NCBI GenBank assembly: GCA_023402015.1
Contig: JAEXCU010000015.1
Location: 67,879-131,878 of the forward strand
Origin: Pseudomonadota bacterium
GTDB lineage: Bacteria > Pseudomonadota > Alphaproteobacteria > Rs-D84
Direction of reading: 5' to 3'
DNA: 64,000 nucleotides
Part shown: piece by piece, positions 5,176 to 33,878 of the stretch
Layout: each line of letters starts with the position of its first letter
Numbering within the stretch: the first letter of the stretch is position 1
Notes under the pieces: model-generated
The model's database searches: none
What the model saw: only the letters and a program-made list of their open reading frames with translations
Told to the model about the DNA's origin: nothing
Translations under genes and position numbers: made by a program

Positions 5176-5326
5176 ATTGGGACCGTCCATATGGATGGGG
5201 GGCGGCGGCGATATATTTGAATAAGTATCACTATGGCATTAAACGTGGTGGCTGAACCCCGGCCACCACCGTTTTTAATGGTTTTCTTTTATTGAAAAAT
5301 TTCTTATATTATTATATAATGCCCGT

Positions 5327-14360: not shown

Positions 14361-15314
14361 CTATAAAAGATCATTTAGCAAGTTCATACATTTAATTTTC
14401 TGCTGCATGTTTGCCCTGCCATAGACATTTAACGTAAAGGACACGTTCTTATGTCCCAGAATTTCGGACAGAGATTTAATATCAAAGTCCGGTATTTCAA
14501 TAGCACGCACGGCAAATGTGTGCCTTATTTCATGAAACTTGACAGTACGCAGATTATGCTTTTTTAAGAATCTCGCAAAGAACTGACGATATGTCCTAGG
14601 CTCCGTTGGCTTGGTCTTTCCGGTTAAAAAATACTGATTAGGGTTATCTGAATAGTACTTTTTAATGATATTTATCAGCAAAGACGGCACCGGAATCGTT
14701 CGTGCCGAACAGGCGGTCTTGGGTGCGCCAATATGAACATACGAGGTTCCTTTAGTTTTATCATAAATTCGCTGAACCGTGCGTTGGATAGTGATAGTTT
14801 TATCAGTCAGAGATATATCACGCACCTGCAGACCACACAATTCACCAATGCGAATGCCGGTAAACAATGCGACCAAGACACCAGCTGTGCGGCGGTTCAT
14901 TTTCATATAAATACATTGAATAAGAGCCAATTCTTCATCCTTAGACAAAGTAATGACGCGCTTGATTGAAAAGTCCTTAGGATATTCAATCAAATCCCAA
15001 TTCAACATAGGGATAATTTTTTCTTTATACGCATAAAGCATACATAGCCGCAGGACTAAAATAATATCACGAATGGTTTTGATGGTAAGACCGCCGGTTT
15101 TATCCAATCGCCCCTCATTATGTAGCAGAGTAATATACGCCTGAATATCAGATTCAGTAATATTGCCAATCTTTTGCTTGCCAAAGTGAGGTATCAGATG
15201 ATTTTCTGCAATCAGCATAAAGCTGGCATAAGTCGACGGTGTAATCATAGGGCTTTTTTGGCTAAGCCATACATTGATCAAGTTTTTGAAGTGACTATTT
15301 GATGTTAGTGTCAT
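14361..15314 (-). CDS. tyrosine recombinase (phage-integrase family), likely the hsdS invertase
   Basis: Catalytic signature HEIRHTFAVRA ... LGHKNVSFTLNVYGRA. RBS AAGGAG. It lies directly beside the inverted hsdS cassettes. Confidence 0.85.
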   Translation of the reverse strand: MTLTSNSHFKNLINVWLSQKSPMITPSTYASFMLIAENHLIPHFGKQKIGNITESDIQAYITLLHNEGRLDKTGGLTIKTIRDIILVLRLCMLYAYKEKIIPMLNWDLIEYPKDFSIKRVITLSKDEELALIQCIYMKMNRRTAGVLVALFTGIRIGELCGLQVRDISLTDKTITIQRTVQRIYDKTKGTSYVHIGAPKTACSARTIPVPSLLINIIKKYYSDNPNQYFLTGKTKPTEPRTYRQFFARFLKKHNLRTVKFHEIRHTFAVRAIEIPDFDIKSLSEILGHKNVSFTLNVYGRANMQQKIKCMNLLNDLL

Positions 15315-15366
15315 TGTACATACTCCTTTTTAAGTACAGATGTATGTTGAGAAGAAAAAACACTAA

Positions 15367-16491
15367 AAACAAACCTCTAGTATTGGTCTTGAACCGCCCC
15401 TCCGTTTCCCAGAGTTTGAGGGAGAATATACAAAATTTAAGCTAGGTGACATATGCATTAAGGTTCAACGCAAAAATCAAGATTCTGATGCGCCTATCAT
15501 GATGTTATCTGCAGGAACAGGATTCATAATGCAATCAGAAAAGTATTCCAGAGATAATGCTGGGCAAAGCCTTGCAAAATACACTATCTTGAAGCGTACT
15601 GAACTGGCCTACAATCACGGGGCTTCAAAGCAAAAACCATTTGGATGCTGCTATATGCTAACAGAAGAAAAAGCGAGGGTTCCATATGTATACCACTGCT
15701 TTTCGATCCAAAATAATACCCCACAATATATAGCCATATTACTTAATAATCAACGTATAGAAAGACAACTGAAAAAGCTAGTTTCTTCAAGTGTTAGAAT
15801 GGACGGTTTATTGAATATTTCTTTTGATGATTATATGACTGTTGACCTATATTTACCCGACATTTCTGAACAACAAAAGATTGCGGACTTCCTGTCCCTG
15901 GTTGATGAAAGAATTGAAAAACAGCGGCAGCTGGTCGATGCCCTGAAGAAGTATAAAAGAGGAGCTTTATCAAGAGTTTTTAACGATGTTTTGAAAACCG
16001 TAAAATTATCGGATATTTCTAATTTTATTTCTTCCGTAAGGACATTGTCTACAATATTAAATAGCAATAAGGGAATTTATCCTGTTTACGATGCGGCTGG
16101 TATAGCTGGATATATTGACCATTATGATATTGATTCTGACTATATAACAATAGTTAAAGATGGATCGGGAGTGGGCCGCTTGCAAAAATGTGATAAAAAA
16201 TCTAGTTTTATTGGAACTCTGGGAGCATTGGTTGCGAAAAATTGTACTACAGATTTTTTATATGCAGTTCTGCAAACAATAAATTTTTCTAAATTTGTTA
16301 CAGGAATGGCTATTCCTCATATTTATTACAGGGACTATAAAAGCACTCTACTTCCATTTCCTAGTGAAGAAAAGCGACATTTTATATCGCAATTATTTAA
16401 AGAATTTGATATTCACATAGAAAATGAAACCCAAAAATTAAACAATATACTGACATATAAACAAGGATTGCTCCAGCAGATGTTTATATAA
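15367..16491 (+). CDS. hsdS: start-less (silent) hsdS cassette with two target-recognition domains
   Basis: The frame is open from just after TAA 15364-15366, with no start codon before the conserved SSIGLE..LRFPEF segment. It has the central repeat EQQKIADFLSLVDERIEKQRQLVDALKKYKRG and the C-terminal KQGLLQQMFI. Confidence 0.75.
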   Translation, partial: KQTSSIGLEPPLRFPEFEGEYTKFKLGDICIKVQRKNQDSDAPIMMLSAGTGFIMQSEKYSRDNAGQSLAKYTILKRTELAYNHGASKQKPFGCCYMLTEEKARVPYVYHCFSIQNNTPQYIAILLNNQRIERQLKKLVSSSVRMDGLLNISFDDYMTVDLYLPDISEQQKIADFLSLVDERIEKQRQLVDALKKYKRGALSRVFNDVLKTVKLSDISNFISSVRTLSTILNSNKGIYPVYDAAGIAGYIDHYDIDSDYITIVKDGSGVGRLQKCDKKSSFIGTLGALVAKNCTTDFLYAVLQTINFSKFVTGMAIPHIYYRDYKSTLLPFPSEEKRHFISQLFKEFDIHIENETQKLNNILTYKQGLLQQMFI

Positions 16492-17671
16492 ACATTTTTT
16501 GTAAAAGTCCTTGTTTTTGAGTATTCAATCTCTCTAATACATCATTTTCTGTTGTTATTTTTTTATCTAAAATAGCAAATATTTTTGCAATGTTATCTTG
16601 CATCTCTTTGGTCGGTAATTTTATGAGCATATCACTTAACGTGGAAAGAACAATATATGGAGTATTACCGGCTTTTTTTTCAGCATCTATTCGTGGGTGC
16701 AAATTTGCTTGCAAATAGTAATAAATATACATTATATTTTCTTGAAAACTATCCAATACATAGGTTCTTTGATAAGCATTAAATTTTCCACAATAATGGT
16801 GGATGTAACCAACATTAGCTCCGTTACCAGAAATTAGTAATGCATCCGTGTCAAATGCATAAGTATCTATTTCAAAATATTCTCTGGCACATGTATAAAA
16901 ACGATATTTCCCTCCCACAACCATTGCATTTGCGTCTAATTTACCTGTTGTGATATTACAAATTTCACCTAATGTTAATGTGTTATTTGAAGATATTTTA
17001 TTAAAAAAGGCGGATAACAACCCTCTTTTATACTTCTTTAAGCTCTCAACCAACTGTCGCTGTTTTTCGATGCGCTGGTCAATAAGAGAGAGGAAATTAG
17101 CAATTTTTTGTTGTTCTTCTATGTTTGGACTTAAAAAATGAGTGGTGGCAAAAAAATCATCTGTTGGTACATTAAGTAGACCATGATTTCTAGCTCCTTC
17201 AGCTGAAATAAAGTAGATTTGACGATACCATTTTAATGAATCAAAATAATGTCTTATATAATCGGAGCAATGTTTTTTTAAAGAAAAACAAATGTAGAGA
17301 GTCGACAATGCTCCCATTTCGTATCGTTCTAATCTTTTTATTGATCCAAAATCATAACCATTCGAATAACTTTTATTGTATGCAAATTCTCCATTTTTTA
17401 GAAGATAATATCCAGACATATCTTTACTAGATACTTTTTTATTAAAGAATGTAACTTGGTCAACTAATCCATCTTTAGATGATATTGTTAAAGGCAAATC
17501 AGTTTGATTTTTATTATTTTTTCTCGTTACTCTTAACGTTAAATCAGACAGTTTTTCTGTAATCCATGGATCACTATACGACGAAAATCGTAGTGCAGGA
17601 ACTTTACCTTCAAGACCAATACTAGAGGATACATTTTTTGATAAAATTTGGCTTTTTGCATTATTTGTCAT
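16484..17671 (-). CDS. hsdS: Type I restriction-modification specificity subunit HsdS (expressed copy)
   Basis: Layout TRD1, central conserved repeat (EQQKIANFLSLIDQRIEKQRQLVESLKKYKRG), TRD2, KQGLLQKMFI. It lies 3 nt downstream of hsdM. Confidence 0.9.
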   Translation of the reverse strand: MTNNAKSQILSKNVSSSIGLEGKVPALRFSSYSDPWITEKLSDLTLRVTRKNNKNQTDLPLTISSKDGLVDQVTFFNKKVSSKDMSGYYLLKNGEFAYNKSYSNGYDFGSIKRLERYEMGALSTLYICFSLKKHCSDYIRHYFDSLKWYRQIYFISAEGARNHGLLNVPTDDFFATTHFLSPNIEEQQKIANFLSLIDQRIEKQRQLVESLKKYKRGLLSAFFNKISSNNTLTLGEICNITTGKLDANAMVVGGKYRFYTCAREYFEIDTYAFDTDALLISGNGANVGYIHHYCGKFNAYQRTYVLDSFQENIMYIYYYLQANLHPRIDAEKKAGNTPYIVLSTLSDMLIKLPTKEMQDNIAKIFAILDKKITTENDVLERLNTQKQGLLQKMFI

Positions 17672-17674
17672 GGC

Positions 17675-19249
17675 TTAGTTCTCCATGTCAAAAGGGAAAT
17701 CTAACCCCAGTTCATCAAAGTATGGCTTCAATTTCGCGTTGATTTCCTTGATATCTGAATTTAGCTTTTTGATTTCTGCAGAAGTAGCGTTCAAATCGAT
17801 AGGCTCTTCCTCCTCAAATGTGTCCACGTAGCGGGGAATATTCAGGTTAAAACCATTTTCAGCAATCTCTACCATTGTCGCAACATGTGCATACTTTTCG
17901 ACATCCTGGCGTTTGACATAAGTATCCACAATTTTATCAATGTCGCAGTCACGCAGGATATTTTGGTTCTTGCCTGGTTCAAATTCCTTGGACGCGTCAA
18001 TAAACAAAATATTGTCTTTGTTACCGTTACGGTTCTTTTTCAGCACCAATACGCAGACAGGGATCCCCGTTCCAAAGAACAAATTGGCAGGCAGGCCAAT
18101 AACGGCATCCAACAGGTTCAATTTTTCGATCAAGTATTTACGAATAGTTTCTTCTGCGGCACCGCGGAAAAGCACCCCATGGGGCAGCAATACAGCAATG
18201 CGACCATCTTCGTCCATATGGTGAACCATATGTTGCACAAACGCAAAATCTGCCTTGCTTTTTGGGGCAAGTTTGCCATATTCGCTGAAACGTTCGTCTT
18301 CTAGGAACTTATCATCAGCAGACCAGTTTGCAGAGTATGGCGGGTTTGCAACTTGGATTCGATACTGTTTGTCATTAGCAAGTTCTGTAAAGAAGTCATG
18401 TTCCAAGGTGTCGCCATTGTATATTTCAAAATTACGGTACGGAATACCGCGCAAAATCATATTCATGCGAGCCAGATTATAGGTGGTAGAAGTCAATTCT
18501 TGGCCATAATAATTACGCACATTTACATACTTTTTCAGCCGTAACAGCAATGAGCCAGAACCACAAGTCGGGTCGGCAGCCGCTTTAACATCGGTCAATC
18601 CATAACACGCCAAGCGGCACAATAATTCAGCCGGTCCCGATGGCGTATAAAACTCTCCGGCTTTTTTGCCGGCAGTGGCGGCAAACTGACCAATCAGATA
18701 TTCGTACGCATTACCAAGAACATCAATCTTTGTATCTTCTACACTAAAGTCAATCTCATCCAAAGCTGCGATTATCTTGGCCATAACTGCAGAACGGTCT
18801 TTGACAGTATGCCCCAGTTTTGTGGAATCCAACTGCATATCAGAGAACAGATCTTCAAAATCGTCTTGCGATGCATTGCCGATCGTGGATTCCATTAAGC
18901 TGTTGATGGCAGTCTGCAAGAATTCAATGTCAAACGAACGGTTTTCAACCATTGCAACTAAATTGCGAAATAGATATTGAGGCTCAATAACAAATCCCAA
19001 ATCGTTTAATGCTTCTTCTATTATTGCCACCTTGTACTCAGGATTTTCCCAGGCCTGTTCATAAGACATCGCATCGTCTTTTAGAATCTTGGTCATATAT
19101 TTTTCCGTGCGGTCAGATAGATAATAATAGAAAATCATGCCAAGAATATAATTCTTGAATTCATAGGCTTCCATATTACCCCGCAGGGCATTTGCCATAT
19201 TCCACAATTTATTACACAGTGTTTTCTGATGCGCTTGAATATCGTCCAT
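17675..19249 (-). CDS. hsdM: Type I R-M N6-adenine DNA methyltransferase subunit HsdM
   Basis: An HsdM N-terminal domain, the AdoMet motif DPTCGSGSLL, and the catalytic motif NPPYS. Confidence 0.9.
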   Translation of the reverse strand: MDDIQAHQKTLCNKLWNMANALRGNMEAYEFKNYILGMIFYYYLSDRTEKYMTKILKDDAMSYEQAWENPEYKVAIIEEALNDLGFVIEPQYLFRNLVAMVENRSFDIEFLQTAINSLMESTIGNASQDDFEDLFSDMQLDSTKLGHTVKDRSAVMAKIIAALDEIDFSVEDTKIDVLGNAYEYLIGQFAATAGKKAGEFYTPSGPAELLCRLACYGLTDVKAAADPTCGSGSLLLRLKKYVNVRNYYGQELTSTTYNLARMNMILRGIPYRNFEIYNGDTLEHDFFTELANDKQYRIQVANPPYSANWSADDKFLEDERFSEYGKLAPKSKADFAFVQHMVHHMDEDGRIAVLLPHGVLFRGAAEETIRKYLIEKLNLLDAVIGLPANLFFGTGIPVCVLVLKKNRNGNKDNILFIDASKEFEPGKNQNILRDCDIDKIVDTYVKRQDVEKYAHVATMVEIAENGFNLNIPRYVDTFEEEEPIDLNATSAEIKKLNSDIKEINAKLKPYFDELGLDFPFDMEN

Positions 19250-19265
19250 TTCCTGAATCCTTTAA

Positions 19266-22064
<2,799 letters not shown>

Positions 22065-22227
22065 AAATTGTCTCCTTATATCAAAACAATACCTGTTTAT
22101 AAGAAAAAAATCAATAAAGTAATCATATAGAAATCTGTTATGTAAATGAACACTATTATTGTGTTGAAATAACTTGACTTATACCCCTTTGTAAGCAGTA
22201 ATTGCGTGAGCTTACAAAGGAGTAATT

Positions 22228-22431
22228 ATGGGGTATAAAAATCCGCCGGTGGAATATCGGTTTCGACCGGGGCAATCGGGTAATCCATACGGGCGAATGG
22301 GACGCCGTGTGTCCGAGCATGAGCGGCAATGCCTGCTGCGTATGATGGTGGATGCGATATGTGATTATCGGCCGAAAAACAACACACGTTTACGCAAAAT
22401 TATGGGGATATTACATGAAGCAATTGAATAG
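22228..22431 (+). CDS. small DUF5681-like protein
   Basis: The motif FRPGQSGNPYGR is typical of that family. It sits upstream of the DUF2924/recombinase pair, as in other alphaproteobacterial islands. Confidence 0.55.
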   Translation: MGYKNPPVEYRFRPGQSGNPYGRMGRRVSEHERQCLLRMMVDAICDYRPKNNTRLRKIMGILHEAIE

Positions 22432-24409
22432 TATCCCGACCAATTTCTCGGATCTGCAAAAGATGCCTAAAGCCGCCCGTGTCGCCCTGTGGGCGCGATA
22501 TGTGCCGCACCCGTTCGCGGGCCAAAATAAGGCCCTGTGGTACTATATTCAATGTGAGCAAATGGGGGTGCGCATACTGCCGAAACATATGATTAAATTG
22601 CGTAAGTACAGGGATAATCCAGCCGATTGTATAACACGGGTTTATAAAACCAAATATCGCCTGGCGCCCGGCACGATTATAACCAAATCTTTTCGTGGTG
22701 TTGCGCATCGCGTGATGGTCTGTGACGATGGCATGCTTGAATATAACGGCCAGAAATTCAGAACTTTGTCCGGTGTGGCAAGCATTATTGCAGGGATAAA
22801 AATATCCGGCTCCGACTTCTTTGGATTTAGCAAAAGGAAAAAGAATGCCGAAATTACGTGCGCGATTTACACGCGAAAATCAACCGAGCATGGTTTGGAA
22901 TTAGAGTTTAATTCACTGCAAAACCAAGAAGAGGCATGCAAGGCGTATATTGCATCCCAATCATTTAATGGATGGGAGTATTATAAAACATATACCGATG
23001 CGGCTATATCGGGCGGCACAATGTCGCGCCCCGCATTACAGCAAATGTTGGACGACATGTCGCGTGGCCTTATAAATGTGGTTGTTGTATACAAGGTTGA
23101 TTACCTGTCGCGGTCTATTCTGGATTTTCACAGTATGATGAAATACTTTGAAAAATATAATGCCAATTTTGTATCCATTACCCAGTCGTTTGATACATCA
23201 AATTCTATGGGAAAATTGACACTGAATATGCTGCTGTCATTTGCCCAGTTTGAGCGCGAAGTAGCATCCGAACGTGTGCGCGATAAAATTCGTGCCAGCA
23301 AGGCTAAGGGAATGTGGCTGGGCGGTGCGCCACGTTTGGGATATGATTTGCAAGATAAAAAGTTGATTGTAAATGAACAAGAGGCAGAACAAATCCGGGA
23401 TTTATTTAACACATACCTGCGTCTGGGCAGTGTGTCGGCCCTGATTGAATATGCGGCAGATAAAAATATATGTAATAAGCAATGGAGGTCAAAACGCGGT
23501 GCCATATGGGGAGGACGGGAACTCACCAAACATTCGCTGCATCGCATTTTGCGAGACAAGATTTATATCGGAATGATAGAAAGCAATGTTACCAATATCT
23601 GCGCCCCGGGTGAGCATCAGGCAATTGTTGATATCGATACATTTAATCGTGTGCAGGAAATGCTGGCCAAAAATGACAACGATAAGACTGCGCGCGGCGG
23701 TTCGCCAAACCTGATTACGGGAAAGTTATTCAATGCGGCGGGCGTAAAATTTACCAATCAGCGTACCTGTGGCGTGGGCAAGGTAACAAAATATTATTAC
23801 GCCACACGGGGATTTTATCTGCCGGCACCGGAATTGGATGCGATTGTTGCGCGTGCCATAAATGACTTTATGGACTCCGATATGTCAAACCTTGGCGATA
23901 GTGTTGCAACAATGCTGAAGCGTATTGATATGCACGCCATGGAGTATGATGCGCGGCGTAAATTCATTCGCACAATGATACGCAAGGTCGTGTACACTGA
24001 AAATCAAATAATGATATTTATAAACCCCAGTGCCGGCGAATTACCAAAATATACGGGCGAAACGTTTAATCAAAAATCCAACCCTATGGAATATACGACG
24101 GACGCCGATGGTGTAATTATAAAATGCCCGGTATTTTTGAAAAAGCACAGCAAGACAAACTCACTGCTACACATCGTTGATAACAACCATTTAATCGTGC
24201 GTGCTTTTGCCACGGCGTTTCACTATCGTGATGTGTACGAGCGTGGGCGCACCGTCCCAGAAATAGCAACAGATGAACACGCATCAGAAACAACTGTGCG
24301 GCGATATCTGAAACTGGCGTATATCAATCCGCAAATGATAAATGATATTTTAGATGCAAAAACGCCGTATCGTGTGGACGACCTGTTCCACATATCGCCA
24401 ATGTTTTGA
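22415..24409 (+). CDS. DUF2924-like domain fused in frame to a large serine recombinase
   Basis: The N-terminal ~145 aa are DUF2924-like (GVAHRVMVCDDGMLEYNGQKFRTLSGVASIIAG..FFGF). A resolvase domain follows (AIYTRKSTE...VVVYKVDYLSRS...SFAQFEREVASERVRDKI), then a recombinase domain. Confidence 0.8.
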   Translation: MKQLNSIPTNFSDLQKMPKAARVALWARYVPHPFAGQNKALWYYIQCEQMGVRILPKHMIKLRKYRDNPADCITRVYKTKYRLAPGTIITKSFRGVAHRVMVCDDGMLEYNGQKFRTLSGVASIIAGIKISGSDFFGFSKRKKNAEITCAIYTRKSTEHGLELEFNSLQNQEEACKAYIASQSFNGWEYYKTYTDAAISGGTMSRPALQQMLDDMSRGLINVVVVYKVDYLSRSILDFHSMMKYFEKYNANFVSITQSFDTSNSMGKLTLNMLLSFAQFEREVASERVRDKIRASKAKGMWLGGAPRLGYDLQDKKLIVNEQEAEQIRDLFNTYLRLGSVSALIEYAADKNICNKQWRSKRGAIWGGRELTKHSLHRILRDKIYIGMIESNVTNICAPGEHQAIVDIDTFNRVQEMLAKNDNDKTARGGSPNLITGKLFNAAGVKFTNQRTCGVGKVTKYYYATRGFYLPAPELDAIVARAINDFMDSDMSNLGDSVATMLKRIDMHAMEYDARRKFIRTMIRKVVYTENQIMIFINPSAGELPKYTGETFNQKSNPMEYTTDADGVIIKCPVFLKKHSKTNSLLHIVDNNHLIVRAFATAFHYRDVYERGRTVPEIATDEHASETTVRRYLKLAYINPQMINDILDAKTPYRVDDLFHISPMF

Positions 24410-24430
24410 CACATTCCGCCACTATAAAAA

Positions 24431-24455
24431 TCGGGGTTGTATGTAACCCCGATTG
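24431..24455 (+). terminator. Intrinsic terminator ATCGGGGTT-GTATGT-AACCCCGAT plus T-run after the recombinase gene
   Basis: A perfect 9-bp stem followed by TTGTTTTT. Confidence 0.7.
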
Positions 24456-24581
24456 TTTTTGCGGTTTGGCACCTGGTGCTACTACATACAAAATAAGAAA
24501 ACAAAAAATACCCCGAAATTTGCGCGGAATTCCGGGGTGTTAAAATCACAATTAAACCATAGTGATTTCAATAAAATATCG

Positions 24582-24655
24582 TGGTTGGGGCGCACGGATT
24601 CGAACCATGATAAAGAGAACCAAAATCTCTTGTCCTACCATTAGACGACACCCCA
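24582..24655 (-). tRNA. tRNA-Gln (anticodon UUG)
   Basis: Hand-folded, 74 nt: TGGGGTG TC GTC..GAC A AGAGA TTTTGGT TCTCT TTATC ATGGT? TTCGAAT .. CGCCCCA A CCA. Confidence 0.85.
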
Positions 24656-24667
24656 AAAGCATCACCG

Positions 24668-24695
24668 ATTATAAATACTTTTAACATTTTTGCAA
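24668..24695 (-). promoter_or_regulatory. Predicted sigma70-type promoter of tRNA-Gln (TTGCAA, 16 nt, TATAAT)
   Basis: The -35 element is at 24690-24695 and the -10 element at 24668-24673 (minus-strand reading). It lies about 12 nt upstream of the tRNA 5' end. Confidence 0.5.
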
Positions 24696-24767
24696 TAATA
24701 AAATAAACGTTGTGCAATTTCTGATTTACTTTTTGTCCTTTTATCAATATAATATATAACGAATCCA

Positions 24768-25025
24768 TAGGGATTGTGGGTTCGGGCTGTCGTAAGCCTT
24801 ACATTAAAGCAATATGCCGCTGCATATTGAATCCGCATGGGTATAAGGGCGGTGCTTTGGGCACCTTTTCTTATATCAACCCCGCACTGCCAGCCAGGTC
24901 GGGGAGCCGCCTGCATATAAAACAGGGTATCTTCCCGAAAGCAGTGCGGAATCATTCTTTAATGTTGATTTACGAACTCCCCGGCCGCCATTTCCTGTGG
25001 CGGTTTTTAATTCTGTGTATGGGGT
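24768..25025 (+). promoter_or_regulatory. Long structured 5' leader ending in an intrinsic terminator, upstream of the 810-aa orphan gene
   Basis: Several perfect helices: 24762-66/24771-75, 24784-88/24795-99, 24851-55/24861-65, 24882-90/24941-49 and 24900-06/24977-83. The terminator is CCGCCA-TTTCCTG-TGGCGG-TTTTT at 24985-25008. Confidence 0.55.
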
Positions 25026-25031
25026 GTGCCT

Positions 25032-27464
25032 ATGGCGGTAAAGTTCAAAGATTTCATGTTAAATTGGTACAAGGCGTATCATCTGTACAACATGGATGAC
25101 CCGCGAAAACAACGTTGGGCCGATTTGCGTGGAAAATCGTACGAAATTAATTCCAAGGGCGAATATGTATATTTGGAAGACGCGCGAAACGGTGTGCAAA
25201 AGGGATGGGCAAATCCAAAAACAGGGGAATTGGCAACTGAATTGCCGTTGCCGGATTTAAGTGAAGAAGATTGGGAATATTTTTATCGCCTGTGTCGCAC
25301 GGCAATACGAAACATTAATGACAAACGCGAAGATTTGTTGCGAAATGACCCTGATAAAAACCCATTGCCGATTGATAAATGGTTCGGCAGTAAGAATTTA
25401 AAGGCGTTCAGTGTTCAAGAGGTCAAGCAACCAATCAAAGACAAACTGAAACAATTTGCATCGGTGGTATTGGAAACGCCACGATTGAAAAACAAACTGA
25501 TGGACAGTTTTTCTGCTGATTATTCCATAGATACATTTTTGGCCGATTTAATTGACCAGGATTATTCGCGTAATTCGCAATTTACAATTGCGAAAATTCA
25601 AACTCTGGTGCGTATATTACCGGGACTGTTGCGTCCGGAATATGATTTCAAGGTCGGTGATTATAAAAATCCATTTGATGATAAAACCAATGACGCGATT
25701 CAACGCATATTTATTGGTACCGGTTATGACCCGATTGCCGGAATTGCAATGGATGATTTGGAAAATCAGTTTGATGAAATATCCGCCGAATTGGACCCCG
25801 CGAACGAGCAAATAAACCCAATGCAATTGGCGCAGTTTAAACACCCCAGTGTTTATAAAGAAATATTAAAGGCATTGTATGCGCCGGACAAACCAGAAAA
25901 GAAATCGCCATTTCATTCCCAATTTGCATCCAACGGTGGTGGGGAAATCACGGGATACATGAACGAAGTTGTTGGTGGGAATAATTATGAATCCGGCGCA
26001 AACGAATTGGTCCCGAAACTGGGCAAAGAATTAAATATCCGTGAACAGTTTAATAAAAAAATCGGTGATTTTCAGGACGAACATTTTTTGCGTCTGACGG
26101 ACCGCGCGGCCCGGCATGTTTACATAGAACCCGCCGCCAAAGGCATTGTGGATGCAATTATTAAAGAAAAAATATCCCCAACGGATGGATTGAGCAAAAT
26201 CATTGAAAAAAAGGATGCCATTGCAAAACGCGTCCAGGCCAAATCACCCGTCAGCAAAAAGGGGTGTGATTTTTTCTTTGAAGCGCTGTCATATATCCAG
26301 GCGTCCGGCGACATGGACGAAGCGTTATCCGGCGCATTAAAAAATGGTCGCAAGGCCGAGGCAATTGCATTTGAAATAATAAAATATGCAATTTCCAAAC
26401 GTAAAATTAACGAAGCCAAGGCCGCATTGGAAGTCTTCGCAGTTATGCGGTACGATACTTTTTCGTCCGCCCATTGGAATGATTTAAAGAAATCCCAAAA
26501 CGATATCTTTGGCGACAAAAATTTGTCTTTTAATAAAAATGAAACCATGTCGTTTTTAACCCGCGCATTGGATAAAACGATTTGGTTGGGTGTTAATGGT
26601 GCATTTTGGACCGGCGTTTTGACACGCAATTTAATTCAACACGGTCGCGGTAAAATGTCGCCTGATGATATGGCACGTATGAAATCGGCACTGACGAAAA
26701 TAAATGCAGACAGCCAAGAATTCACAAATCTGGCCGATGCGCAGGCGCAACATAATGAAATCCGTACGCAATTATTGGCCGCCCAGGAAAATTTTGGTTA
26801 TGCAATGATTCTGCGCGATGAATATGGTGAATTAAATAATGAAATCACACGTTTGGAATCTAAAATCCCCGCGGCCACCAAAGATACAGATTTATCACGT
26901 TTAACTGCGTTGCAGAATGAAATTGCCGTTAAAAAAGATGCGCGGGACAAAATGCATTCAAAGTTAACGGCGCATGCCGATGAATTTGTGAAATTGGATG
27001 AATTGCAACATAAAATAAAGGGTTTAAATCACGAAATTGCCGCCCAGGGTGATGCGCTGCGAACAGAAACAGATGCGGCGCGCATAAATATAATTCGCGA
27101 TGAATTAGAAACCAAGAACAAACAGTTAAAATTATACAGTGGGTGTTTAAATGTATACGATAAAATGCGTCAAGACTATATGGAATTGGAACGCGAAGAC
27201 CGTGTCGCCCAGGAATTGGCCACGCGATTGGGCGCCGCGGCCGAACGTGGGCACGCCAAGGAAACAGATTCCAAACCATATAATGCGCCCAAATCAGATA
27301 TTCAAAATATGCAAATGCTGATGGCATTTTGGAATGCGGCAAACGGTTATACGCGCGGAATTAATGTTAATTCGTATAATATTTTACGTAATATAAAAAA
27401 TGTTCGCAAAAATGCAAATCTGCAAAAGACATTTAATCAAATGGTAAATTACGAACACGAATAA
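25032..27464 (+). CDS. large hypothetical protein (810 aa from ATG 25032), with a coiled-coil-rich C-terminal third
   Basis: A long uninterrupted ORF with no signal peptide and no motif I recognise. Confidence 0.7.
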   Translation: MAVKFKDFMLNWYKAYHLYNMDDPRKQRWADLRGKSYEINSKGEYVYLEDARNGVQKGWANPKTGELATELPLPDLSEEDWEYFYRLCRTAIRNINDKREDLLRNDPDKNPLPIDKWFGSKNLKAFSVQEVKQPIKDKLKQFASVVLETPRLKNKLMDSFSADYSIDTFLADLIDQDYSRNSQFTIAKIQTLVRILPGLLRPEYDFKVGDYKNPFDDKTNDAIQRIFIGTGYDPIAGIAMDDLENQFDEISAELDPANEQINPMQLAQFKHPSVYKEILKALYAPDKPEKKSPFHSQFASNGGGEITGYMNEVVGGNNYESGANELVPKLGKELNIREQFNKKIGDFQDEHFLRLTDRAARHVYIEPAAKGIVDAIIKEKISPTDGLSKIIEKKDAIAKRVQAKSPVSKKGCDFFFEALSYIQASGDMDEALSGALKNGRKAEAIAFEIIKYAISKRKINEAKAALEVFAVMRYDTFSSAHWNDLKKSQNDIFGDKNLSFNKNETMSFLTRALDKTIWLGVNGAFWTGVLTRNLIQHGRGKMSPDDMARMKSALTKINADSQEFTNLADAQAQHNEIRTQLLAAQENFGYAMILRDEYGELNNEITRLESKIPAATKDTDLSRLTALQNEIAVKKDARDKMHSKLTAHADEFVKLDELQHKIKGLNHEIAAQGDALRTETDAARINIIRDELETKNKQLKLYSGCLNVYDKMRQDYMELEREDRVAQELATRLGAAAERGHAKETDSKPYNAPKSDIQNMQMLMAFWNAANGYTRGINVNSYNILRNIKNVRKNANLQKTFNQMVNYEHE

Positions 27465-27594: not shown

Positions 27595-28044
27595 ATGTCG
27601 CGCAAGGAATTTATTCGCCTGATGGAATCTAATATTTGGATTCTGGACAAATTGTCTGCACGTCTGAAACGGGAACCATTTGGTTTGTCGGGTTATCCAC
27701 GTCAACAAATGGCAATCTTGGTTCGTTTGCATGTGGGGGGGCGGGCCAGATTAAAAGATATCGCAATTCGTGAAATGGCAACAACGCCAAATCTGTGTGC
27801 TGCGTTCAGAAAATTAGAACGCGACGGGTTGGTTGCGCGCGCGATTGATGAACAAGACCGTCGCAACACATGGTATTCGTGCACACCGGCCGGTTCTGAA
27901 ATGGCATGTCGGGCATTGGATACATTTCGCGATGGTATTGAAAAATTGTTCAGTGGACTAAGTCGTGAAGACGAAGATGCATTGACGGGTGCGCTGAAAA
28001 CAATGAACAAAGTGTTAACAAAGATGGAGATAAGTAATGCATAA
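27595..28044 (+). CDS. MarR-family transcriptional regulator
   Basis: Winged-HTH core LKDIAIREMATTPNLCAAFRKLERDGLVARAIDEQDRRN. Confidence 0.85.
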   Translation: MSRKEFIRLMESNIWILDKLSARLKREPFGLSGYPRQQMAILVRLHVGGRARLKDIAIREMATTPNLCAAFRKLERDGLVARAIDEQDRRNTWYSCTPAGSEMACRALDTFRDGIEKLFSGLSREDEDALTGALKTMNKVLTKMEISNA

Positions 28045-29368
28045 AACAAGACTGGTATCAGTTTGTGCTGTTATATGTTTGGGGGTTGTGGGACAAAACG
28101 CCATGGCATTGGATTTGTCGCTGAACGATACGATTGAAAAAATCGTTCATGAATCCCAGGATGTGAAAAAGGCCGATGCAAACGTCAGCAAAGCGACCGC
28201 CCAATTGGCCGCCGCGAATGCAAACCGTTGGTTCAAGGTTGACGGAACCGCGACATATATGAACATGATAAACGTTGAAAATCCGTCAAAATCCAACGCG
28301 GTTGATTTGCCACCGGCGCTGGGGGGACTGATATCAGACAGTTTAAAGAACCAATCTGTTCATATTGAAATACCGGACAACATCTTTATGGTTGGTGTTT
28401 CCGTGTCCCAGCCGATTTACACGTTTGGTAAAATCGGTAATGCGGTCAACAGTGTAAAATCTGCAATTAAAATGACCAAGGCCAGTCGTGAATTAACCCT
28501 GCGCGAGGTTAAATACAGTGCGGCCGACATTTATTGGACCGCAAAAATGACAGATGAAATCGTCAAGATTGCACAATCTGATTTACAGTCCGCACGCGCC
28601 GCGCGTCGCAATCTGTCATCGGCGGGTCGTGCATCGCGCAGCAACCTGGTTAAAATTGAATCGGATATCGCAACCAAGGAAATAAACCTGTCCGATGCAG
28701 AGTTTAATCGTGATACCGCGTACAGAATGCTGAAAATTCTGGCGGGCATAGATATGGACGAAGAAATCACGCTGACTGATAATTTCCCCCAGACGTTTGG
28801 TGCCCTGGATGCGGGCAAATTGACCGCGAATCCGGAATGGGAAATATTAACCCAACAGGTTCAAATGTATGAATCCAAGGTCAAGGCCGCACGGGCGGAA
28901 TATTTGCCGACATTGGCGGCCACGGCGTCGTATAACTATGTCGCCATGGGTCAGGAATACGACAGCATGTTTGATAAAAAGGGCAGTCAGTCTGCATATT
29001 GGGGATTGGCGTTGCAGATTCCGATTTTTAACGGCGGCGCAACGCGCGCGAACGCAACCATGGACGCCATGGATGCCGAATCCGCGCGTCAAGATTTGGA
29101 TAAATCCAAAAAATTAAAAACCGAAGAATATGACAATGCGATAAAGAAATACAATCATTTACGTGGAAATTTGGCGACATTGGAAAATGCCAGAAACCTG
29201 GCCGCCAAGGCATATAAATTTTCCCAGGACCGCTTTGCGTCTGGGCAAACATCTGCGGTGGAGTTGGCCGAAGTGTCTGCGGGTCTGTACCAGTTGGACA
29301 TGGCGTTGTTAAATGCAAAATACAATATTTTGATGTCGGCGGAATCTGTTAAAAAATTGGGTGAATAA
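28037..29368 (+). CDS. TolC-family outer-membrane efflux protein
   Basis: A signal peptide and the two-repeat OEP architecture (LSLNDTIEK..., ...AVELAEVSAGLYQLDMALLNAKYN). Confidence 0.85.
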   Translation: MHKTRLVSVCAVICLGVVGQNAMALDLSLNDTIEKIVHESQDVKKADANVSKATAQLAAANANRWFKVDGTATYMNMINVENPSKSNAVDLPPALGGLISDSLKNQSVHIEIPDNIFMVGVSVSQPIYTFGKIGNAVNSVKSAIKMTKASRELTLREVKYSAADIYWTAKMTDEIVKIAQSDLQSARAARRNLSSAGRASRSNLVKIESDIATKEINLSDAEFNRDTAYRMLKILAGIDMDEEITLTDNFPQTFGALDAGKLTANPEWEILTQQVQMYESKVKAARAEYLPTLAATASYNYVAMGQEYDSMFDKKGSQSAYWGLALQIPIFNGGATRANATMDAMDAESARQDLDKSKKLKTEEYDNAIKKYNHLRGNLATLENARNLAAKAYKFSQDRFASGQTSAVELAEVSAGLYQLDMALLNAKYNILMSAESVKKLGE

Positions 29369-29370
29369 AA

Positions 29371-29991
29371 ATGGAACGTATATTAGATAAATTTGAACAA
29401 TTAAAAAATTGGTCGCGCAGACCGCGTACTAAAAAAAGACTGTACGTTGTTTTTGTTGCGATTCTGGTGCTGTGGGTTGCGTATCGCTTTGTGATGATTG
29501 GTATTGAAAACCGGTTGTTTGTATTTAATCCGGCCCGTATGGCCACGGAAACTGGCATTGTGGTTGATGTTCAAAATGCAAAAAAACAAACCGGCACATT
29601 ACAAGAACCATTGACGGTTAAAAACAATCGTGCGTTGGTTTCCGGTGCGCGTGCCCAAACACTGCGGGCGGGTCAACGTGTGGGCGACGGTGTTATCGTT
29701 TCTGTTTCCGCCAATATTGATTTGGATACCGGTATGCATGTTGTTCGTACACGTGGCGTGTCAGACGGATTAAACTTTGCAGAATATCAAACATCGGGAT
29801 ATTTTGTTCCGTCGTATGCCGTTGTTAATGATACGGTTTATGTGATTTCTGATGGCGTGGCCACCGCGCGCCCGGTCCATGTATCGCGCAGTGATGCAGA
29901 TACAACCGTCATCACAGACGGATTAACCGACGGCGATGTTATAATATTGTCGCGCGTTGATGACGGCGCAAAAGTTAGAATAAAAAAATAA
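29371..29991 (+). CDS. short periplasmic-adaptor-like protein (206 aa) of the efflux operon
   Basis: It has an N-terminal TM anchor and a beta-rich body. Its position between tolC and the RND pump matches an adaptor. It is much shorter than canonical adaptors. Confidence 0.55.
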   Translation: MERILDKFEQLKNWSRRPRTKKRLYVVFVAILVLWVAYRFVMIGIENRLFVFNPARMATETGIVVDVQNAKKQTGTLQEPLTVKNNRALVSGARAQTLRAGQRVGDGVIVSVSANIDLDTGMHVVRTRGVSDGLNFAEYQTSGYFVPSYAVVNDTVYVISDGVATARPVHVSRSDADTTVITDGLTDGDVIILSRVDDGAKVRIKK

Positions 29992-30018
29992 TCTGATTTC
30001 AAGGATAGGAGAAATTAA

Positions 30019-33000
30019 ATGCTGAAATTCTTCGTAAGCAGACCCATCACTACGCTGATGTTTGTATTGTTTTGGGTTGTTTTGGGATTGGTGTCTTTCC
30101 CAAAAATGAACATTGAACGTACGCCGTCATTGGACTTTCCCATGGTTACGGCCACATTTGTTTATCCGGGCGCGGAACCTGCGGAAATAGAATCCCAGGT
30201 TATTAAAAAGGCCGAAGATGCAATATCCGAGGTTGCCGGATTAAAGAAAATAACATCCCAGGCATTCGAGAACGGCGGGTATGTTATGGCTGAATTCAAC
30301 CTGGGCGTGAATGTTAACGACAAAGCGTCCGAGGTTAAAACCAAAATTGACGCGTTGGCATCGGAATTTCCAGATGATTTAAAACAACCTGTGGTTGAAA
30401 AATTGAATCCATTACAAGAATCTGTGGTGGACATCGTTTTGCGTGGTGCAGATGCGCGTGATTTAGAAGAATATGTTGATAACACATTGGCCACAAAAAT
30501 CACCGCGATAAATGGTGTTGCCAGTGTATCTGTTTTCGGTGGTCGCGAACGCGCGGTTCGCATTCAAATGGACCCGGATCAAATGGCGGCCCGTGGCGTT
30601 ACAATTATGGATATTGTATCTGCGCTGGGGAATAAAAACCTGAACGTGCCTGGCGGTAAAATTGAAAGTGGAACCGCATCGTCCAACGTGCGCTTTATTG
30701 GTGAATTTGCCATGGTTGATGAAATTGAAAACCTGCAAATCGTTACCATGGAAGGCCAAAAGTTCAAAGTATCAGATGTTGCCACCGTGGTGGATGCCGC
30801 GCGCGATATTGAAACCGGTGCACGTTATAACGGCCAAGACGTCGTGGTTGCATCCGTGGTCAAGGCATCTGACGGTAATGCAATTAAAATTTCCAACGCA
30901 TTGCGCGAAAAATTGCCTGATTTCCAGGCGGACATGCAGGCCCGTTTCCCAAATGCAGAAATGCAGATTGTGTCCGATTCATCCATTTCAATTGCTGATG
31001 AAACATACAGCACAATTTGGGGTATCGTACTGGGGATTATATTCACGATTTTGGTTTTGTTGGCGTTTACACGCAACTGGCGTTCCACAATTATTGCGGG
31101 TGCGGTTATTCCGGCGTCCTTGATTGCGGGATTCTTCTTTATGGATGCCAATGGATTTACAATCAATGCGATGACGTTGTTGGCGTATTCATCTGCGCTG
31201 GGGACGTTGGTGTCTAATGCGATTATTCTGATTGAGTCTGCATTACAGGAAATGCACAAAGGTAAAAATCCAGAAAACGCCGCAATTGACGGTACCAAGA
31301 AAGTCGCGGTTTCCGTTTTGGCGGGCGTTGGAACAAACGTTGTTGTGTTCTTGCCGTTGGCATTTATGGGCGGAATTGCGGGTCAATTCATGTCCCAGTT
31401 TGGTATGACGGTTGTGTATTTAACATTGTTATCATTGATGTTCTCTTTCACGTTGGCACCAATGATGATTGCAAAATTCCTGCGTCTGACCGCGCCGGTT
31501 GATAAAAAATCACCGGTTGCAAATGATGCACCGGTGCCGGTTGAAAAGACGCCGTTGCGTCAATGGTTTGATTTTCAATTTCGTCGTCCGGGATTGGTTG
31601 TTGGTGGTGCATTCGTGATTTTAATTGCATCTGCCATGTTGATGAAATTCGTCGGTAATGAATTTACACCGTCAACCGATACAAATGAAATCACCATAAC
31701 GGCGCGCGCGCCAATGGGTGCAACATTTGAAAAATCGCAACATATTGCCGAACAAATAGAAGATGTTTTGGCCCAATTCCCAGATGTCAAGGCGACGACT
31801 GTGAAAATCGGTGAACGCGGTTTGCAAAATATTACAGTAAAACTGGAATTGCAAGAATTGGGCCCGCGCAAGATTTCCGACAAACAATTGGCACGTGATA
31901 TTCTGCCCCGTTTGGCGGAAATTCCCGATACAGAATTTCAAATCAAGGCCGGTGCCGGAATGTCTTCGTCAATTTCATCGGATATGGTGTTAAATATTTA
32001 CGGTGAAGATGACGCAAAACGCGGGGCGTATGCAGACCAGATTCTGAAAATGATAAATGAAATTCCAGAAGTGCAAACGGCCGTCTTTGCGGTATTGCCA
32101 CCCAACAATGAAATTCAATTTGTGGCGGACCAGGCGAAAATGAATTTCTGGGGAGTGTCCAATGCATATGCTGGCGCGGCATTGCGCGCGGCCCTGTATG
32201 GCAACGACGATTACAAATACAAAGAACGCGGCGAAGAATATCCAATTATTGTTGAATTTGCCAAACCGTTTAAAAATGGTGCATTGTTTGACAATGTGTA
32301 TGTAAATTCACAAAAGGGTATGGTTTCAGTATCTGAATTGGGTGAAATCAAACGCCTGCCTGCGACGCCAAACATTAATCGTTTGGATAAAAACAGAATT
32401 ACCGAAATTGACATTAATATCGGTAAATCCACAATGGGGCCTGTTCAGCAAAAAATTCAGGCCGGTCTGGATGAAATGGAATGGGAAATGGGATATTATG
32501 CCGAATTTGGTGGAATGTCTGAAACCCAGGATGAAACAACCGGTGAAATCGGCCAGGCGTTCTTGCTGGCAACAATTCTGACGTTCATGTTGTTGGCGGC
32601 GATATTGAATTCACTGGTTCATCCGTTTACCATTGCAACGTCCATTATCACCAGTTTTGCCGGCGTGTTCATCATGCTGTTCCTGTCGGGGGCATCAATG
32701 AACGTTGGGGCCATGTTGGCGTTCGTTATGTTGGTCGGATTGGTGGTTAACAATAACATTTTGGTGTTGGAACCAACGATTAAGCGAATATCCGAAGGTG
32801 CGGTCCCACGCGTTGCATTGTGGACAGAATTAACAGATAAAAAGAACATGGTGTTAATGACATCTATCGCGGTTGTAACGGGTATGTTGCCCCAGTTATG
32901 GTCAACCGACGGTATGAAGGTCGCCATGGCGGCGGTTATGATTGGTGGTATGTTGGCATCCCTGGTGTGGACATTTACATTAACACCCGCGCTGTTCTTC

Positions 33001-33084
33001 TTATTGGAAGGTTTGCGCGAACGGGTCAAAGCAAAACGCCGCGTTCATAAAATCGCACGCAAAACCAAGAAAGTGAAAAAATAA
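30019..33084 (+). CDS. RND-family efflux transporter permease (AcrB-like)
   Basis: A 1021-aa protein with a 12-TM layout, two large periplasmic loops and an AcrB-type N-terminus. Confidence 0.9.
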   Translation: MLKFFVSRPITTLMFVLFWVVLGLVSFPKMNIERTPSLDFPMVTATFVYPGAEPAEIESQVIKKAEDAISEVAGLKKITSQAFENGGYVMAEFNLGVNVNDKASEVKTKIDALASEFPDDLKQPVVEKLNPLQESVVDIVLRGADARDLEEYVDNTLATKITAINGVASVSVFGGRERAVRIQMDPDQMAARGVTIMDIVSALGNKNLNVPGGKIESGTASSNVRFIGEFAMVDEIENLQIVTMEGQKFKVSDVATVVDAARDIETGARYNGQDVVVASVVKASDGNAIKISNALREKLPDFQADMQARFPNAEMQIVSDSSISIADETYSTIWGIVLGIIFTILVLLAFTRNWRSTIIAGAVIPASLIAGFFFMDANGFTINAMTLLAYSSALGTLVSNAIILIESALQEMHKGKNPENAAIDGTKKVAVSVLAGVGTNVVVFLPLAFMGGIAGQFMSQFGMTVVYLTLLSLMFSFTLAPMMIAKFLRLTAPVDKKSPVANDAPVPVEKTPLRQWFDFQFRRPGLVVGGAFVILIASAMLMKFVGNEFTPSTDTNEITITARAPMGATFEKSQHIAEQIEDVLAQFPDVKATTVKIGERGLQNITVKLELQELGPRKISDKQLARDILPRLAEIPDTEFQIKAGAGMSSSISSDMVLNIYGEDDAKRGAYADQILKMINEIPEVQTAVFAVLPPNNEIQFVADQAKMNFWGVSNAYAGAALRAALYGNDDYKYKERGEEYPIIVEFAKPFKNGALFDNVYVNSQKGMVSVSELGEIKRLPATPNINRLDKNRITEIDINIGKSTMGPVQQKIQAGLDEMEWEMGYYAEFGGMSETQDETTGEIGQAFLLATILTFMLLAAILNSLVHPFTIATSIITSFAGVFIMLFLSGASMNVGAMLAFVMLVGLVVNNNILVLEPTIKRISEGAVPRVALWTELTDKKNMVLMTSIAVVTGMLPQLWSTDGMKVAMAAVMIGGMLASLVWTFTLTPALFFLLEGLRERVKAKRRVHKIARKTKKVKK

Positions 33085-33579: not shown

Positions 33580-33775
33580 TTCTAACCTCCGTTTTTTTCA
33601 TAAAGAAAACCACCAGAAATTCAGGTGGTTGGAGGTTAGCGACTATCTTGTAAATAGTGGTGGTATTTGGTATTTCCACACCCTCCAACCAGTGGTTGGA
33701 GATTAAAAAATGCACCACATAACGCCGCGGATGCCTGCGTACAAGAATGGGTCGCTAAACCCCGTTATCAGAATA
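33580..33775 (-). promoter_or_regulatory. Structured 5' leader with intrinsic terminator (copy 2 of the leader family)
   Basis: All elements read on the minus strand. Candidate promoter TTGCAC, 17 nt, TATGAT. Hairpin 33683-33701. Small hairpin 33642-33658. Terminator AACCACC/GGTGGTT at 33608-33630. Anti-SD 33631-38 pairs with SD 33583-90. Confidence 0.6.
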
Positions 33776-33878
33776 CCTGACAACATTTTTATCATAACAA
33801 TATAAAATTTGCGGTGCAAGCAAAAGGTTGCTATAATGCATGCGTGAATAAATGCTTAACATAAAAAGGGTTTATAAT

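Follow-up and report, generated by a model that had tools for sequence, protein, structure and literature searches.

A multi-copy structured leader RNA with a predicted three-strand terminator switch in Candidatus Enterousia and related gut Alphaproteobacteria

The 810-aa gene of the DNA studied here, a 64-kb stretch of contig JAEXCU010000015.1 (hereafter the window, whose positions are used for DNA numbering), raises a simple question: what is the RNA that precedes it, and what could this RNA do? A first-pass annotation had placed at this site a structured leader ended by an intrinsic terminator, proposed as a riboswitch or attenuator that fits none of the known motifs. All of the sequence elements that it claimed were located in the window, and the terminator-ended structured leader is borne out by the folding, terminator, covariation and Rfam results given below. 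The comparison of related sequences shows that this leader (24761-25008, read as RNA from the + strand) is one copy of an undescribed, multi-copy family of structured 5' leader RNAs. About 150 copies of the family were collected in approximately 1.2 Mb of fetched DNA from 86 assemblies (pattern matches counted by accession prefix) of Candidatus Enterousia and related gut Alphaproteobacteria, all of the compared genomes being metagenome-assembled genomes (MAGs).

Copies, types and covariation of the leader family

Between 24760 and 25030 the + strand folds with a minimum free energy (MFE) of -107.8 kcal/mol (z = -4.45), an energy equalled by 0 of 200 shuffled sequences; the - strand of the leader region gave z = -3.9 in the folding test. 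A terminator scan detected a hairpin-like site at 24983-25005 with a T-run after it. The earlier statement that no known motif fits is upheld: at gathering score, Rfam 15 returned three tRNAs only in the whole window and no family at the leader, and its sensitive mode, applied to 24400-25200 and 5280-5540, yielded nothing that reaches the cut-off. Full-text literature searches (Enterousia; Rs-D84 with riboswitch) retrieved no description of the motif.

Members of the family were collected by means of sequence patterns and covariance models. A pattern drawn from the 3' part of the leader (GAACNNCCCGRCCGCCA...GTGGCGGTT) detected the same RNA upstream of unrelated genes in other Enterousia MAGs. 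The covariance model R1, built from 12 sequences of this type 1, recovered further copies together with two diverged, low-scoring ones in the window itself, 5327-5499(+) and 33783-33600(-). A second type, which keeps the architecture and carries different switching strands (Table 1), was matched by its own pattern in at least 119 stretches. The second model, R2, recognized 131 strong copies in the fetched loci, and R1 picked up additional type-1 copies in the loci fetched for type 2. Two copies apiece are present in eleven 8-kb loci, and several types co-occur in one genome, as in the window and in loci L020, L074, L109 and L131. Types 1 and 2 are treated as a single family because each model detects the other type (R1 on type 2, 38.2 bits, E = 4.6e-8; R2 on type 1, 48 bits, E = 1.2e-10). 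The pattern matches come from ruminant, horse, mouse, human and termite guts. Enterousia belongs to the order Rs-D84 and has genomes of about 0.75-1.0 Mb (PMC12306168). Extrapolation from the three copies of the 64-kb window suggests tens of copies per genome.

The check proposed for the leader, namely a search for homologues whose helices covary, turned out positive for both types. In the MAFFT alignment of type 1, 92.4% of the cells are paired and the covariation score reaches 0.425, against 0.170 after shuffling (0/500) and 0.06-0.10 with slid partners; the corresponding values for type 2 (109 copies) are 95.9% and 0.591, against 0.173 (0/500) and 0.05-0.07. At the level of aligned sequences, this covariation supports a predicted fold composed of a 5'-terminal hairpin P1, a hairpin P2 whose loop pairs with a distant strand to give a pseudoknot (PK), the long-range helix P3, and P4, a hairpin whose loop is conserved.

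Each of these elements can be followed through its base changes. P1 presents compensatory changes in type 1 and both-sided changes in 7/7 pairs in type 2; it takes the place of the AATCC/GGATT hairpin suggested earlier for the 5' end, the family supporting the strands of Table 1 instead. The GGGCT/AGCCT helix of the same annotation corresponds to the conserved P2, whose pair types are CG 6, UA 4 and UG 1 in type 1 and, at the outer pair of type 2, GC 59, AU 23 and GU 21. The best-supported long-range helices, P3 and PK, were absent from it. P3 exhibits both-sided changes in 7/7 pairs in both types and holds the pairs of highest mutual information. PK is 100% paired in type 1, where two of its pairs read GC 6/AU 6 and UA 6/AU 4/CG 1/GC 1; in type 2, at least 7 of 8 positions are complementary in 116 of 117 copies of many differing sequences, and 5/6 pairs covary. 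Both-sided changes affect 4/6 pairs of P4 in type 1, and the type-2 equivalent carries a conserved, unpaired loop, GAAUAUAUUGAAUAAG. A further helix, P6, reads CUAU/AUAG or CAAU/AUUG in its type-2 equivalent (UA 77/AU 27); P2 and P6 covary even though they lie outside the covariance models. The terminator stem covaries as well, with CCAUCA/UGAUGG in the second L012 copy and GC 57/AU 50 at one type-2 pair.

Independently of any model, own duplexes are longer than cross duplexes in the MAFFT alignment (8.8 against 4.9 bp for P1, 7.4 against 4.0 for PK, 8.1 against 4.5 for P3), with no difference for control region pairs, and all the top pairs of a mutual-information scan fall within the proposed helices. 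A lone long-range pair was found outside the modelled helices, at alignment columns 47 and 239 (UA 57/CG 35 in the 109 type-2 copies). It links the base after GGGG with the base before P6 (CUAU in the 5324-5507 copy) and bridges the pseudoknot loop and the junction of P4 and P6; of the type-1 copies checked by eye, only about half are paired at the corresponding positions. This pair may be counted in favor of a compact tertiary fold. P2 and PK would together form an H-type pseudoknot with a first stem of 4 bp, a second of 5-7 bp and a loop of 1-2 nt, a geometry read from the sequence. P6 and the full P3 are probably mutually exclusive; in the window copy, AAUCA (24950-54) and UGAUU (24966-70), which flank the 3' strand of P3, can enclose this strand in a short local helix resembling P6. 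Since P6 and P3 are both conserved, a second conformational choice is hinted at. A pairing of the GGGG after P1 with the switching strand a'' (see below) was proposed by RNAalifold and by MFE folds, in columns that vary too little to inform. Inside P3 lie the variable insertion hairpins P3a and P3b. The GGTGC/GCACC helix noticed in the first reading of the locus is conserved within the window subfamily, but only as part of P3b, an optional insertion that is missing from the 192-nt minimal copy in L021. Another minimal copy, the second one in L020, measures about 145 nt.

A high copy number, together with a degenerate half-copy at 5176-5290, might also betray a selfish repeat, similar to miniature inverted-repeat transposable elements (MITEs) or repetitive extragenic palindromes (REPs), and a sub-threshold match to sRNA-Xcc1 (RF02221), overlapping the region from a' to a'', might betray a known RNA family missed by the searches. 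This explanation is very improbable. The copies diverge, yet compensatory changes keep every helix; the promoter, the orientation and the spacing to the gene that follows are fixed, and the leader is conserved at orthologous sites before the 810-aa gene. The alignment to sRNA-Xcc1, the best of those below threshold in Rfam, spans 24898-24993, where both RNAs have two small hairpins closed by a G-rich/C-rich helix. The match covers the a'-a'' part only, with 29.5 bits against a gathering score of 53, and is absent in type 2, neither type reaching any Rfam cut-off. Identity with sRNA-Xcc1 was rejected, and the resemblance is at chance level.

The switching strands and the terminator

Three strands, named a, a' and a'', precede or enter the terminator. 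The strand a' (24897-24906) pairs with a'' (24977-86) over 10 bp, and the last 4 nt of a'' (24983-86) are the first 4 nt of the 5' arm of the terminator; the same overlap recurs in type 2 (alignment columns 280-284). The CGGGGAG/CTCCCCG pairing listed in the first-pass annotation is the core of this helix, which covaries across relatives. Its description as an alternative pairing abutting the terminator was right in substance, the helix being a predicted antiterminator whose overlap with the terminator arm is 4 nt. The strand a' can also pair locally. In type 2 it forms an 8-bp hairpin with a, and in the MFE fold of the window copy it is paired with CUUCCCGA (24931-38) and not with a''.

The a'.a'' helix is paired at 94% in type 1, one pair reading AU 6, UA 3, GC 1, GU 1 and UG 1, and at 99.9% in the collected type-2 copies, with 5 double changes. 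Across types 1, 2, 2b, 3 and 4, the strands a, a' and a'' change in concert (Table 1). As judged from these sequences, selection maintains two mutually exclusive helices, one of which would destroy the terminator. Such an arrangement is the signature of an anti-antiterminator/antiterminator/terminator device with a 1:2 / 2:3 / 3:4 topology.

The subfamily of the window adds its own variation, a' having additional local partners there. The 9-bp helix announced between 24882-90 and 24941-49 is present, and its arm CCGCACUGC (24882-90) is overlapped by segment a; the strand 24941-49 prefers this helix over P4. Its full 9 bp are however found in the four closest relatives only. Outside the window subfamily its 3' strand pairs instead with the strand just after a' (P4, 8-9 bp), and the helix was rejected as a family-wide feature, being subfamily-specific.

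The same topology is encountered in trp-type attenuators, which likewise have three mutually exclusive pairings, an intrinsic terminator at the end and a default fold that terminates. Ribosome-mediated attenuation, in which the translation of a short leader peptide over a decides between 2:3 and 3:4, would accommodate this topology, and a GGAGG-like motif lies within a'. However, an open reading frame (ORF) of at least 8 codons with a Shine-Dalgarno (SD) sequence and an ATG exists in only 23 of the 140 leaders, none of these ORFs being conserved, and the region 5' of a is filled by covarying RNA helices. Stops occur in 2/3 frames of the conserved P4 loop, as read from its sequence, and the decision region lies within a covarying, tertiary-structured domain. 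Leader-peptide attenuation was rejected for lack of a conserved leader ORF and can be given hardly any weight.

Probable cis action, downstream genes and possible inputs

The setting of the copies bears on their mode of action. In 98 of 138 copies a TATAAT-like hexamer has its first base 9-10 nt upstream of the model start, with the -10 box about 7 nt ahead of P1, and the transcript of the window copy is predicted to start at about 24760-61, the first base of P1. TATAAC had been taken for the -10 element of the window; the family supports TATAAT, with a -35-like TTTACT (Table 1). A same-strand ORF lies directly downstream in 140 of 147 unique copies, and the first U of the tract is separated from the start codon by a median of 31 nt (at most 45 nt in 85% of copies). 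Owing to the leader's own promoter, the fixed orientation and this short distance, the downstream genes would be transcribed only through the terminator. The leader thus presents what is expected of a cis-regulatory element, namely its own promoter, an intrinsic terminator before the start codon and a conserved alternative helix in which some nucleotides of the terminator stem take part, and what is expected of a riboswitch, namely an aptamer-like domain of covarying helices (P1, P2/PK, P3 and P4) with a conserved, unpaired P4 loop and the lone covarying tertiary pair.

The presence of a promoter and a strong terminator on every copy would equally suit a terminated transcript of 150-250 nt that acts in trans as a multi-copy small RNA (sRNA), a C-rich, CCUCC-like segment pairing with ribosome-binding sites while the terminator is constitutive and the genes are passengers. 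Segments a and a'' (CCUCCAACC, CUCCCC) are indeed complementary to SD-like sequences, and multi-copy sRNAs with CCUCC motifs occur in Alphaproteobacteria. Against such an sRNA, the median of 31 nt leaves no space for a second promoter, so that the genes would be left without expression; 140 of 147 copies face the gene that follows them in one fixed orientation, and a conserved, mutually exclusive antiterminator would be pointless in a constitutive sRNA. This possibility is rated improbable and, like the leader peptide and the selfish repeat, it is disfavoured.

The downstream genes (n = 140), assigned to classes by a simple N-terminal rule, comprise 79 that are signal-peptide-like, 44 small ones without a signal (mostly XRE-type helix-turn-helix, HTH), 7 corresponding to the 810-aa orphan and 10 others, methylases and a helicase among them. 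Among 121 of their products, Pfam recognized HTH_31 in 16, HTH_3 in 10, HTH_19 in 7 and Listeria-Bacteroides repeats in 10, with single instances of an EcoRI methylase, an N6_N4 methylase, a UvrD helicase and an outer membrane protein (OMP) beta-barrel. The exported proteins downstream of the leaders probably mediate host or partner contact.

With moderate confidence, the leader of the 810-aa mRNA is interpreted as a member of a large, new family of cis-acting transcription attenuators in the Candidatus Enterousia group. The RNA would begin at its own promoter and fold into a pseudoknotted sensor domain made of P1, P2/PK, P3 and P4 with its conserved loop. When a' is paired with a, or in the window copy with a nearby C-rich strand, the terminator would be free to form, and the pairing of a' with a'' would remove its four bottom base pairs. 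The terminator fold would represent the default state, with the gene off, and an input on the sensor domain would shift a' to a'', so that RNA polymerase could continue into the gene. The C-rich a'', when it is unpaired with a', may in addition mask a G-rich ribosome-binding site. The family is new; the mode of action, that of a riboswitch or attenuator with an intrinsic-terminator platform, is already known.

As to the input, a global-state signal may be presumed, since many genes with no relation to one another lie behind the same leader. The candidate ranked first, even if it falls somewhat short of being probable, is direct binding of a small molecule or ion by the RNA, and the leader would then be a riboswitch that reports such a state. 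Direct sensing is favored because the domain is large, compact and tertiary-structured, and because the regulons of second-messenger riboswitches are similar: known multi-copy second-messenger riboswitches control heterogeneous regulons rich in surface proteins. With such riboswitches, of which cyclic di-GMP-I (c-di-GMP-I/GEMM) is an example, the likeness extends to a structured 5' leader, a pseudoknotted conserved core, a competition between terminator and antiterminator, and many copies per genome before heterogeneous genes, often coding for exported or surface proteins of unknown function. The differences reside in the fold of the leader, with its P2/PK pseudoknot, P3 and P4 loop, in the retention of a third, anti-antiterminator strand a that co-evolves with a' and a'', and in the absence of any match to an Rfam riboswitch model even at E <= 10. 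T-box leaders, which are likewise long, structured, numerous in a genome and endowed with a terminator/antiterminator choice, differ too: neither type matches RF00230 at E <= 10, the antiterminator of the leader is a perfect, uninterrupted 9-10-bp helix devoid of the T-box bulge, and the downstream genes are not aminoacyl-tRNA related.

A broader and distinctly tentative proposal would see in these leaders one new RNA sensor class, present in perhaps dozens of copies per ~0.9-Mb genome, that serves as a main gene-control device of the reduced-genome gut lineage Rs-D84. It would be a riboswitch for a global signal, for instance a second messenger or a compound supplied by the host or a partner, and by way of a three-strand terminator switch, resting on a pseudoknotted fold unlike that of any curated family, it would gate the repertoire of exported and surface proteins, some restriction-modification genes and a set of small XRE regulators.

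A trans-acting protein or RNA is a serious rival to direct ligand sensing. In this case the same RNA would be operated by an antiterminator protein or a small RNA that recognizes the a/a' hairpin or the P4 loop and frees a', the types corresponding to different factors. The strands a, a' and a'' are almost invariant in each type across the 86 assemblies while P1, P3 and PK drift freely, several types reside within one genome, the P4 loop GAAUAUAUUGAAUAAG is conserved and unpaired, and the regulon resembles a co-regulated set of exported and accessory genes and not a pathway. The invariance is nevertheless explained more simply by the three-way pairing constraint, which is hard to change. The known targets of protein-dependent antitermination, such as the RAT, ANTAR, PyrR and TRAP sites, consist of short hairpins or repeats, whereas the domains found here are pseudoknotted, 145-250 nt long and equipped with isolated tertiary pairs. 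A search of the rest of the window for strands complementary to the P4 loop or to a' gave nothing beyond chance or self matches, and no candidate protein was identified. On balance such a factor is considered unlikely, even if its claim is well above that of the sRNA.

Several points weigh against the ligand-operated attenuator. The downstream genes, which encode exported proteins, XRE regulators, DNA methylases and the 810-aa orphan, do not compose a metabolic pathway, and the context of the 140 genes points to no single ligand, metabolite or pathway. The near invariance of a, a' and a'' within a type could mean recognition by a trans-acting factor instead of a ligand. The alignments based on covariance models lean towards the modelled helices, and the type-2 copies were collected with a pattern that fixes a, a' and a'', so that the covariation of these strands rests on fewer, model-found copies. 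The local partner of a' in the window copy is ambiguous and could be CCCCG (24880-84) or CUUCCCGA. Finally, nested-only energies favor the terminator fold, the margin being 12-19 kcal/mol in whole leaders and 2.3 kcal/mol in the 3' part of the window copy alone, and for this reason termination is probably the default, but the a'.a'' helix crosses P3 and PK, and the antiterminator state, being pseudoknotted, lies outside what this comparison can describe.

Should the proposed mode of action be correct, the leader would define a class of orphan riboregulators for which comparative data are unusually plentiful, and genome-reduced, uncultured gut Alphaproteobacteria may control their genes by reusing one RNA module before many of them, above all before those that encode exported proteins. 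The approximately 150 diverse copies already define the helices, the pseudoknot and the three-way switch, which makes structure probing, ligand screens and reporter tests feasible.

The window copies, the 810-aa gene and its surroundings

Table 1. Features of the window leader, other copies of the window, and switching strands of the leader types
Feature	Position	Strand	Content	Basis
Promoter	24725-24753	+	-35-like TTTACT 24725-30, 17-nt spacer, -10 TATAAT 24748-53	Consensus scan
P1, 5'-terminal hairpin	24761-24783	+	GAAUCCAUA 24761-69, loop GGGAU, UGUGGGUUC 24775-83	MFE fold, compensatory changes
P2 hairpin	24785-24798	+	GGCU 24785-88 with AGCC 24795-98	Covariation
PK, 5' strand	24790-94	+	UCGUA, within P2 loop	Covariation
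P3, 5' strand	24801-24809	+	ACAUUAAAG; partner 24957-65	Covariation
Variable insertion hairpins P3a/P3b, inside P3	24810-24877	+		
P3a	24810-17 with 24822-29	+		Pairing kept between window and L001 though sequence differs
P3b		+	UAUAAG/CUUAUA around GGUGC/GCACC (24851-55 with 24861-65)	Optional insertion
Segment a	24880-84	+	CCCCG; can pair with a' (CGGGG)	
Segment a', switching strand	24897-24906	+	GGUCGGGGAG	
P4/P5 domain	24907-24949	+	P4, CCGC-C-UGC 24907-14 with GCA-GU-GCGG 24941-49; after P4 5' strand, conserved loop AUAUAAAAC, P5 GGG 24925-27/CCC 24934-36, GAAAG	
P3, 3' strand	24957-24965	+	CUUUAAUGU; partner 24801-09	Covariation
PK, 3' strand	24969-24975	+	UUUACGA; 24971-75 pair with P2 loop 24790-94	Covariation
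Segment a'', predicted antiterminator strand	24977-24986	+	CUCCCCGGCC; partner a'	
Intrinsic terminator	24983-25008	+	GGCCGCCA 24983-90, loop UUUCCUG, UGGCGGUU 24998-25005, U-tract 25004-08	Scan
Controlled gene (putative)	25021-27464	+	SD-like GGGG 25021-24, ATG 25032, 810-aa all-helical protein	Translation
Second window copy (type 2)	5324-5507	+		R2 146.3 bits; R1 38.2 bits, E 4.6e-8
Third window copy (type 2)	33787-33592	-		R2 136.4 bits
Type 1			a CCCCGAC or CCCUGAC; a' GGUCGGGGAG; a'' CUCCCCGACC	
Type 2			a CUCCAACC; a' GGUUGGAGG; a'' CCUCCAACC	
Type 2b			a' GGUUGGAGU; a'' ACUCCAACC	Three copies
Type 3			a CCUUCUGC; a' GCAGGAGG; a'' CCUCCUGCC	L049
Type 4			a CCUGACC; a' GGUCGGGUG; a'' CACCCGACC	L074

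The 810-aa gene had been taken for an orphan singleton; 19 homologues were found, all of them in uncultured gut Alphaproteobacteria. Its product has no match in Pfam, NCBIfam or PADLOC, and its AlphaFold2 model, with a predicted local distance difference test (pLDDT) value of 79, has no fold match in the PDB at E <= 0.001 with Foldseek. In the absence of a functional hint, this protein provides no clue to the ligand. All orthologues of 62-96% identity (window, L011, L012, L014, L001, L016 and L017) have the leader in front of them, and it is kept despite differing upstream neighbors, which are tRNA-Gln, DUF1015 (L016) or PagL (L017). The leaders of the window and L001 are 86% identical, with one hairpin swapped for a different, still complementary sequence, and the 1-2-nt gaps between them exclude a coding constraint. 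No leader precedes the orthologues of at most 49% identity (L002-L010, L018 and L019). The family occurs elsewhere in some of those genomes, as in JAKSTC (L002 against L122) and JAISAB (L006 against L035, L099 and L129), and the module was therefore placed before the 810-aa gene in one sublineage only.

The other two copies of the window precede genes of the prevailing classes. The copy at 5324-5507(+) lies ahead of an 88-aa XRE-type HTH ORF (5527-5793, HTH_31), and that at 33787-33592(-) ahead of a Cys-rich ORF of 156 aa (33579-33109) whose start resembles a signal peptide. A degenerate copy of the leader 3' half occupies 5176-5290(+), immediately after the stop of ORF 4447-5175 (R2, 21.7 bits). 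Recognizable in it are a hairpin (CCGUCC/GGAUGG), a loop resembling that of P4 (GAUAUAUUUGAAUAAG) and a terminator (GGUGGC/GCCACC with a U-run); this half-copy may be a relic reused as the terminator of the upstream gene.

Some individual matches call for a separate mention. The match in L027 (Acidimicrobiales) was discarded as a chance pattern match with no model match, and reverse-strand model matches (e.g. 33606-33800 +, 30 bits), which are due to the self-complementary a/a'/a'', were ignored. A typical type-2 copy sits in L038 (CAVGNU010000003.1) on a contig that carries the name Bacteroides fragilis; as the other matches are all Alphaproteobacteria MAGs, an error of binning or labelling is the probable cause. 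The type-2 pattern had 0 matches in IMG/VR. On viral contigs the type-1 pattern had 3 matches including 1 real copy (L147), a good type-1 copy at 13238-13453(-) that scores 134 bits with R1 and precedes a lipoprotein-like ORF on a 14-kb contig listed in IMG/VR.

The covariance models would also clear spurious ORF calls over the leader. In L011, a 177-aa ORF at 2351-2884(-) is annotated across the leader and tRNA-Gln, and in L016 the orthologue P0005 (3001-5622) is annotated 63 residues too long, with its start placed inside the leader.

Downstream of the 810-aa gene come a MarR regulator and then an OEP/MFP/RND efflux operon (27595-33084), an order that is kept in L011, L012 and L014 and not in L016, L017 and L019. 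Upstream of the leader, the minus strand encodes tRNA-Gln(UUG) at 24582-24655, which has a promoter-like site of its own at 24695-24668. As the promoters of tRNA-Gln and of the leader diverge, the 105-nt spacer would hold two divergent promoters. A large serine recombinase (22352-24409) and a type I restriction system are located farther upstream. They belong to an island of about 10.7 kb (13854-24601) between 17-nt direct repeats of the tRNA-Gln 3' end (13854-70, 1 mismatch; 24585-24601). Its cargo consists of a tyrosine integrase (14361-15314 -), hsdS (15499-16491 +), a second hsdS (16484-17671 -), hsdM and hsdR, in addition to the large serine recombinase with DUF2924 (22352-24409 +). The opposed hsdS genes adjoin the integrase, which suggests a phase-variable type I system. 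The close relative L011 is without the island but carries another partial tRNA-Gln repeat.

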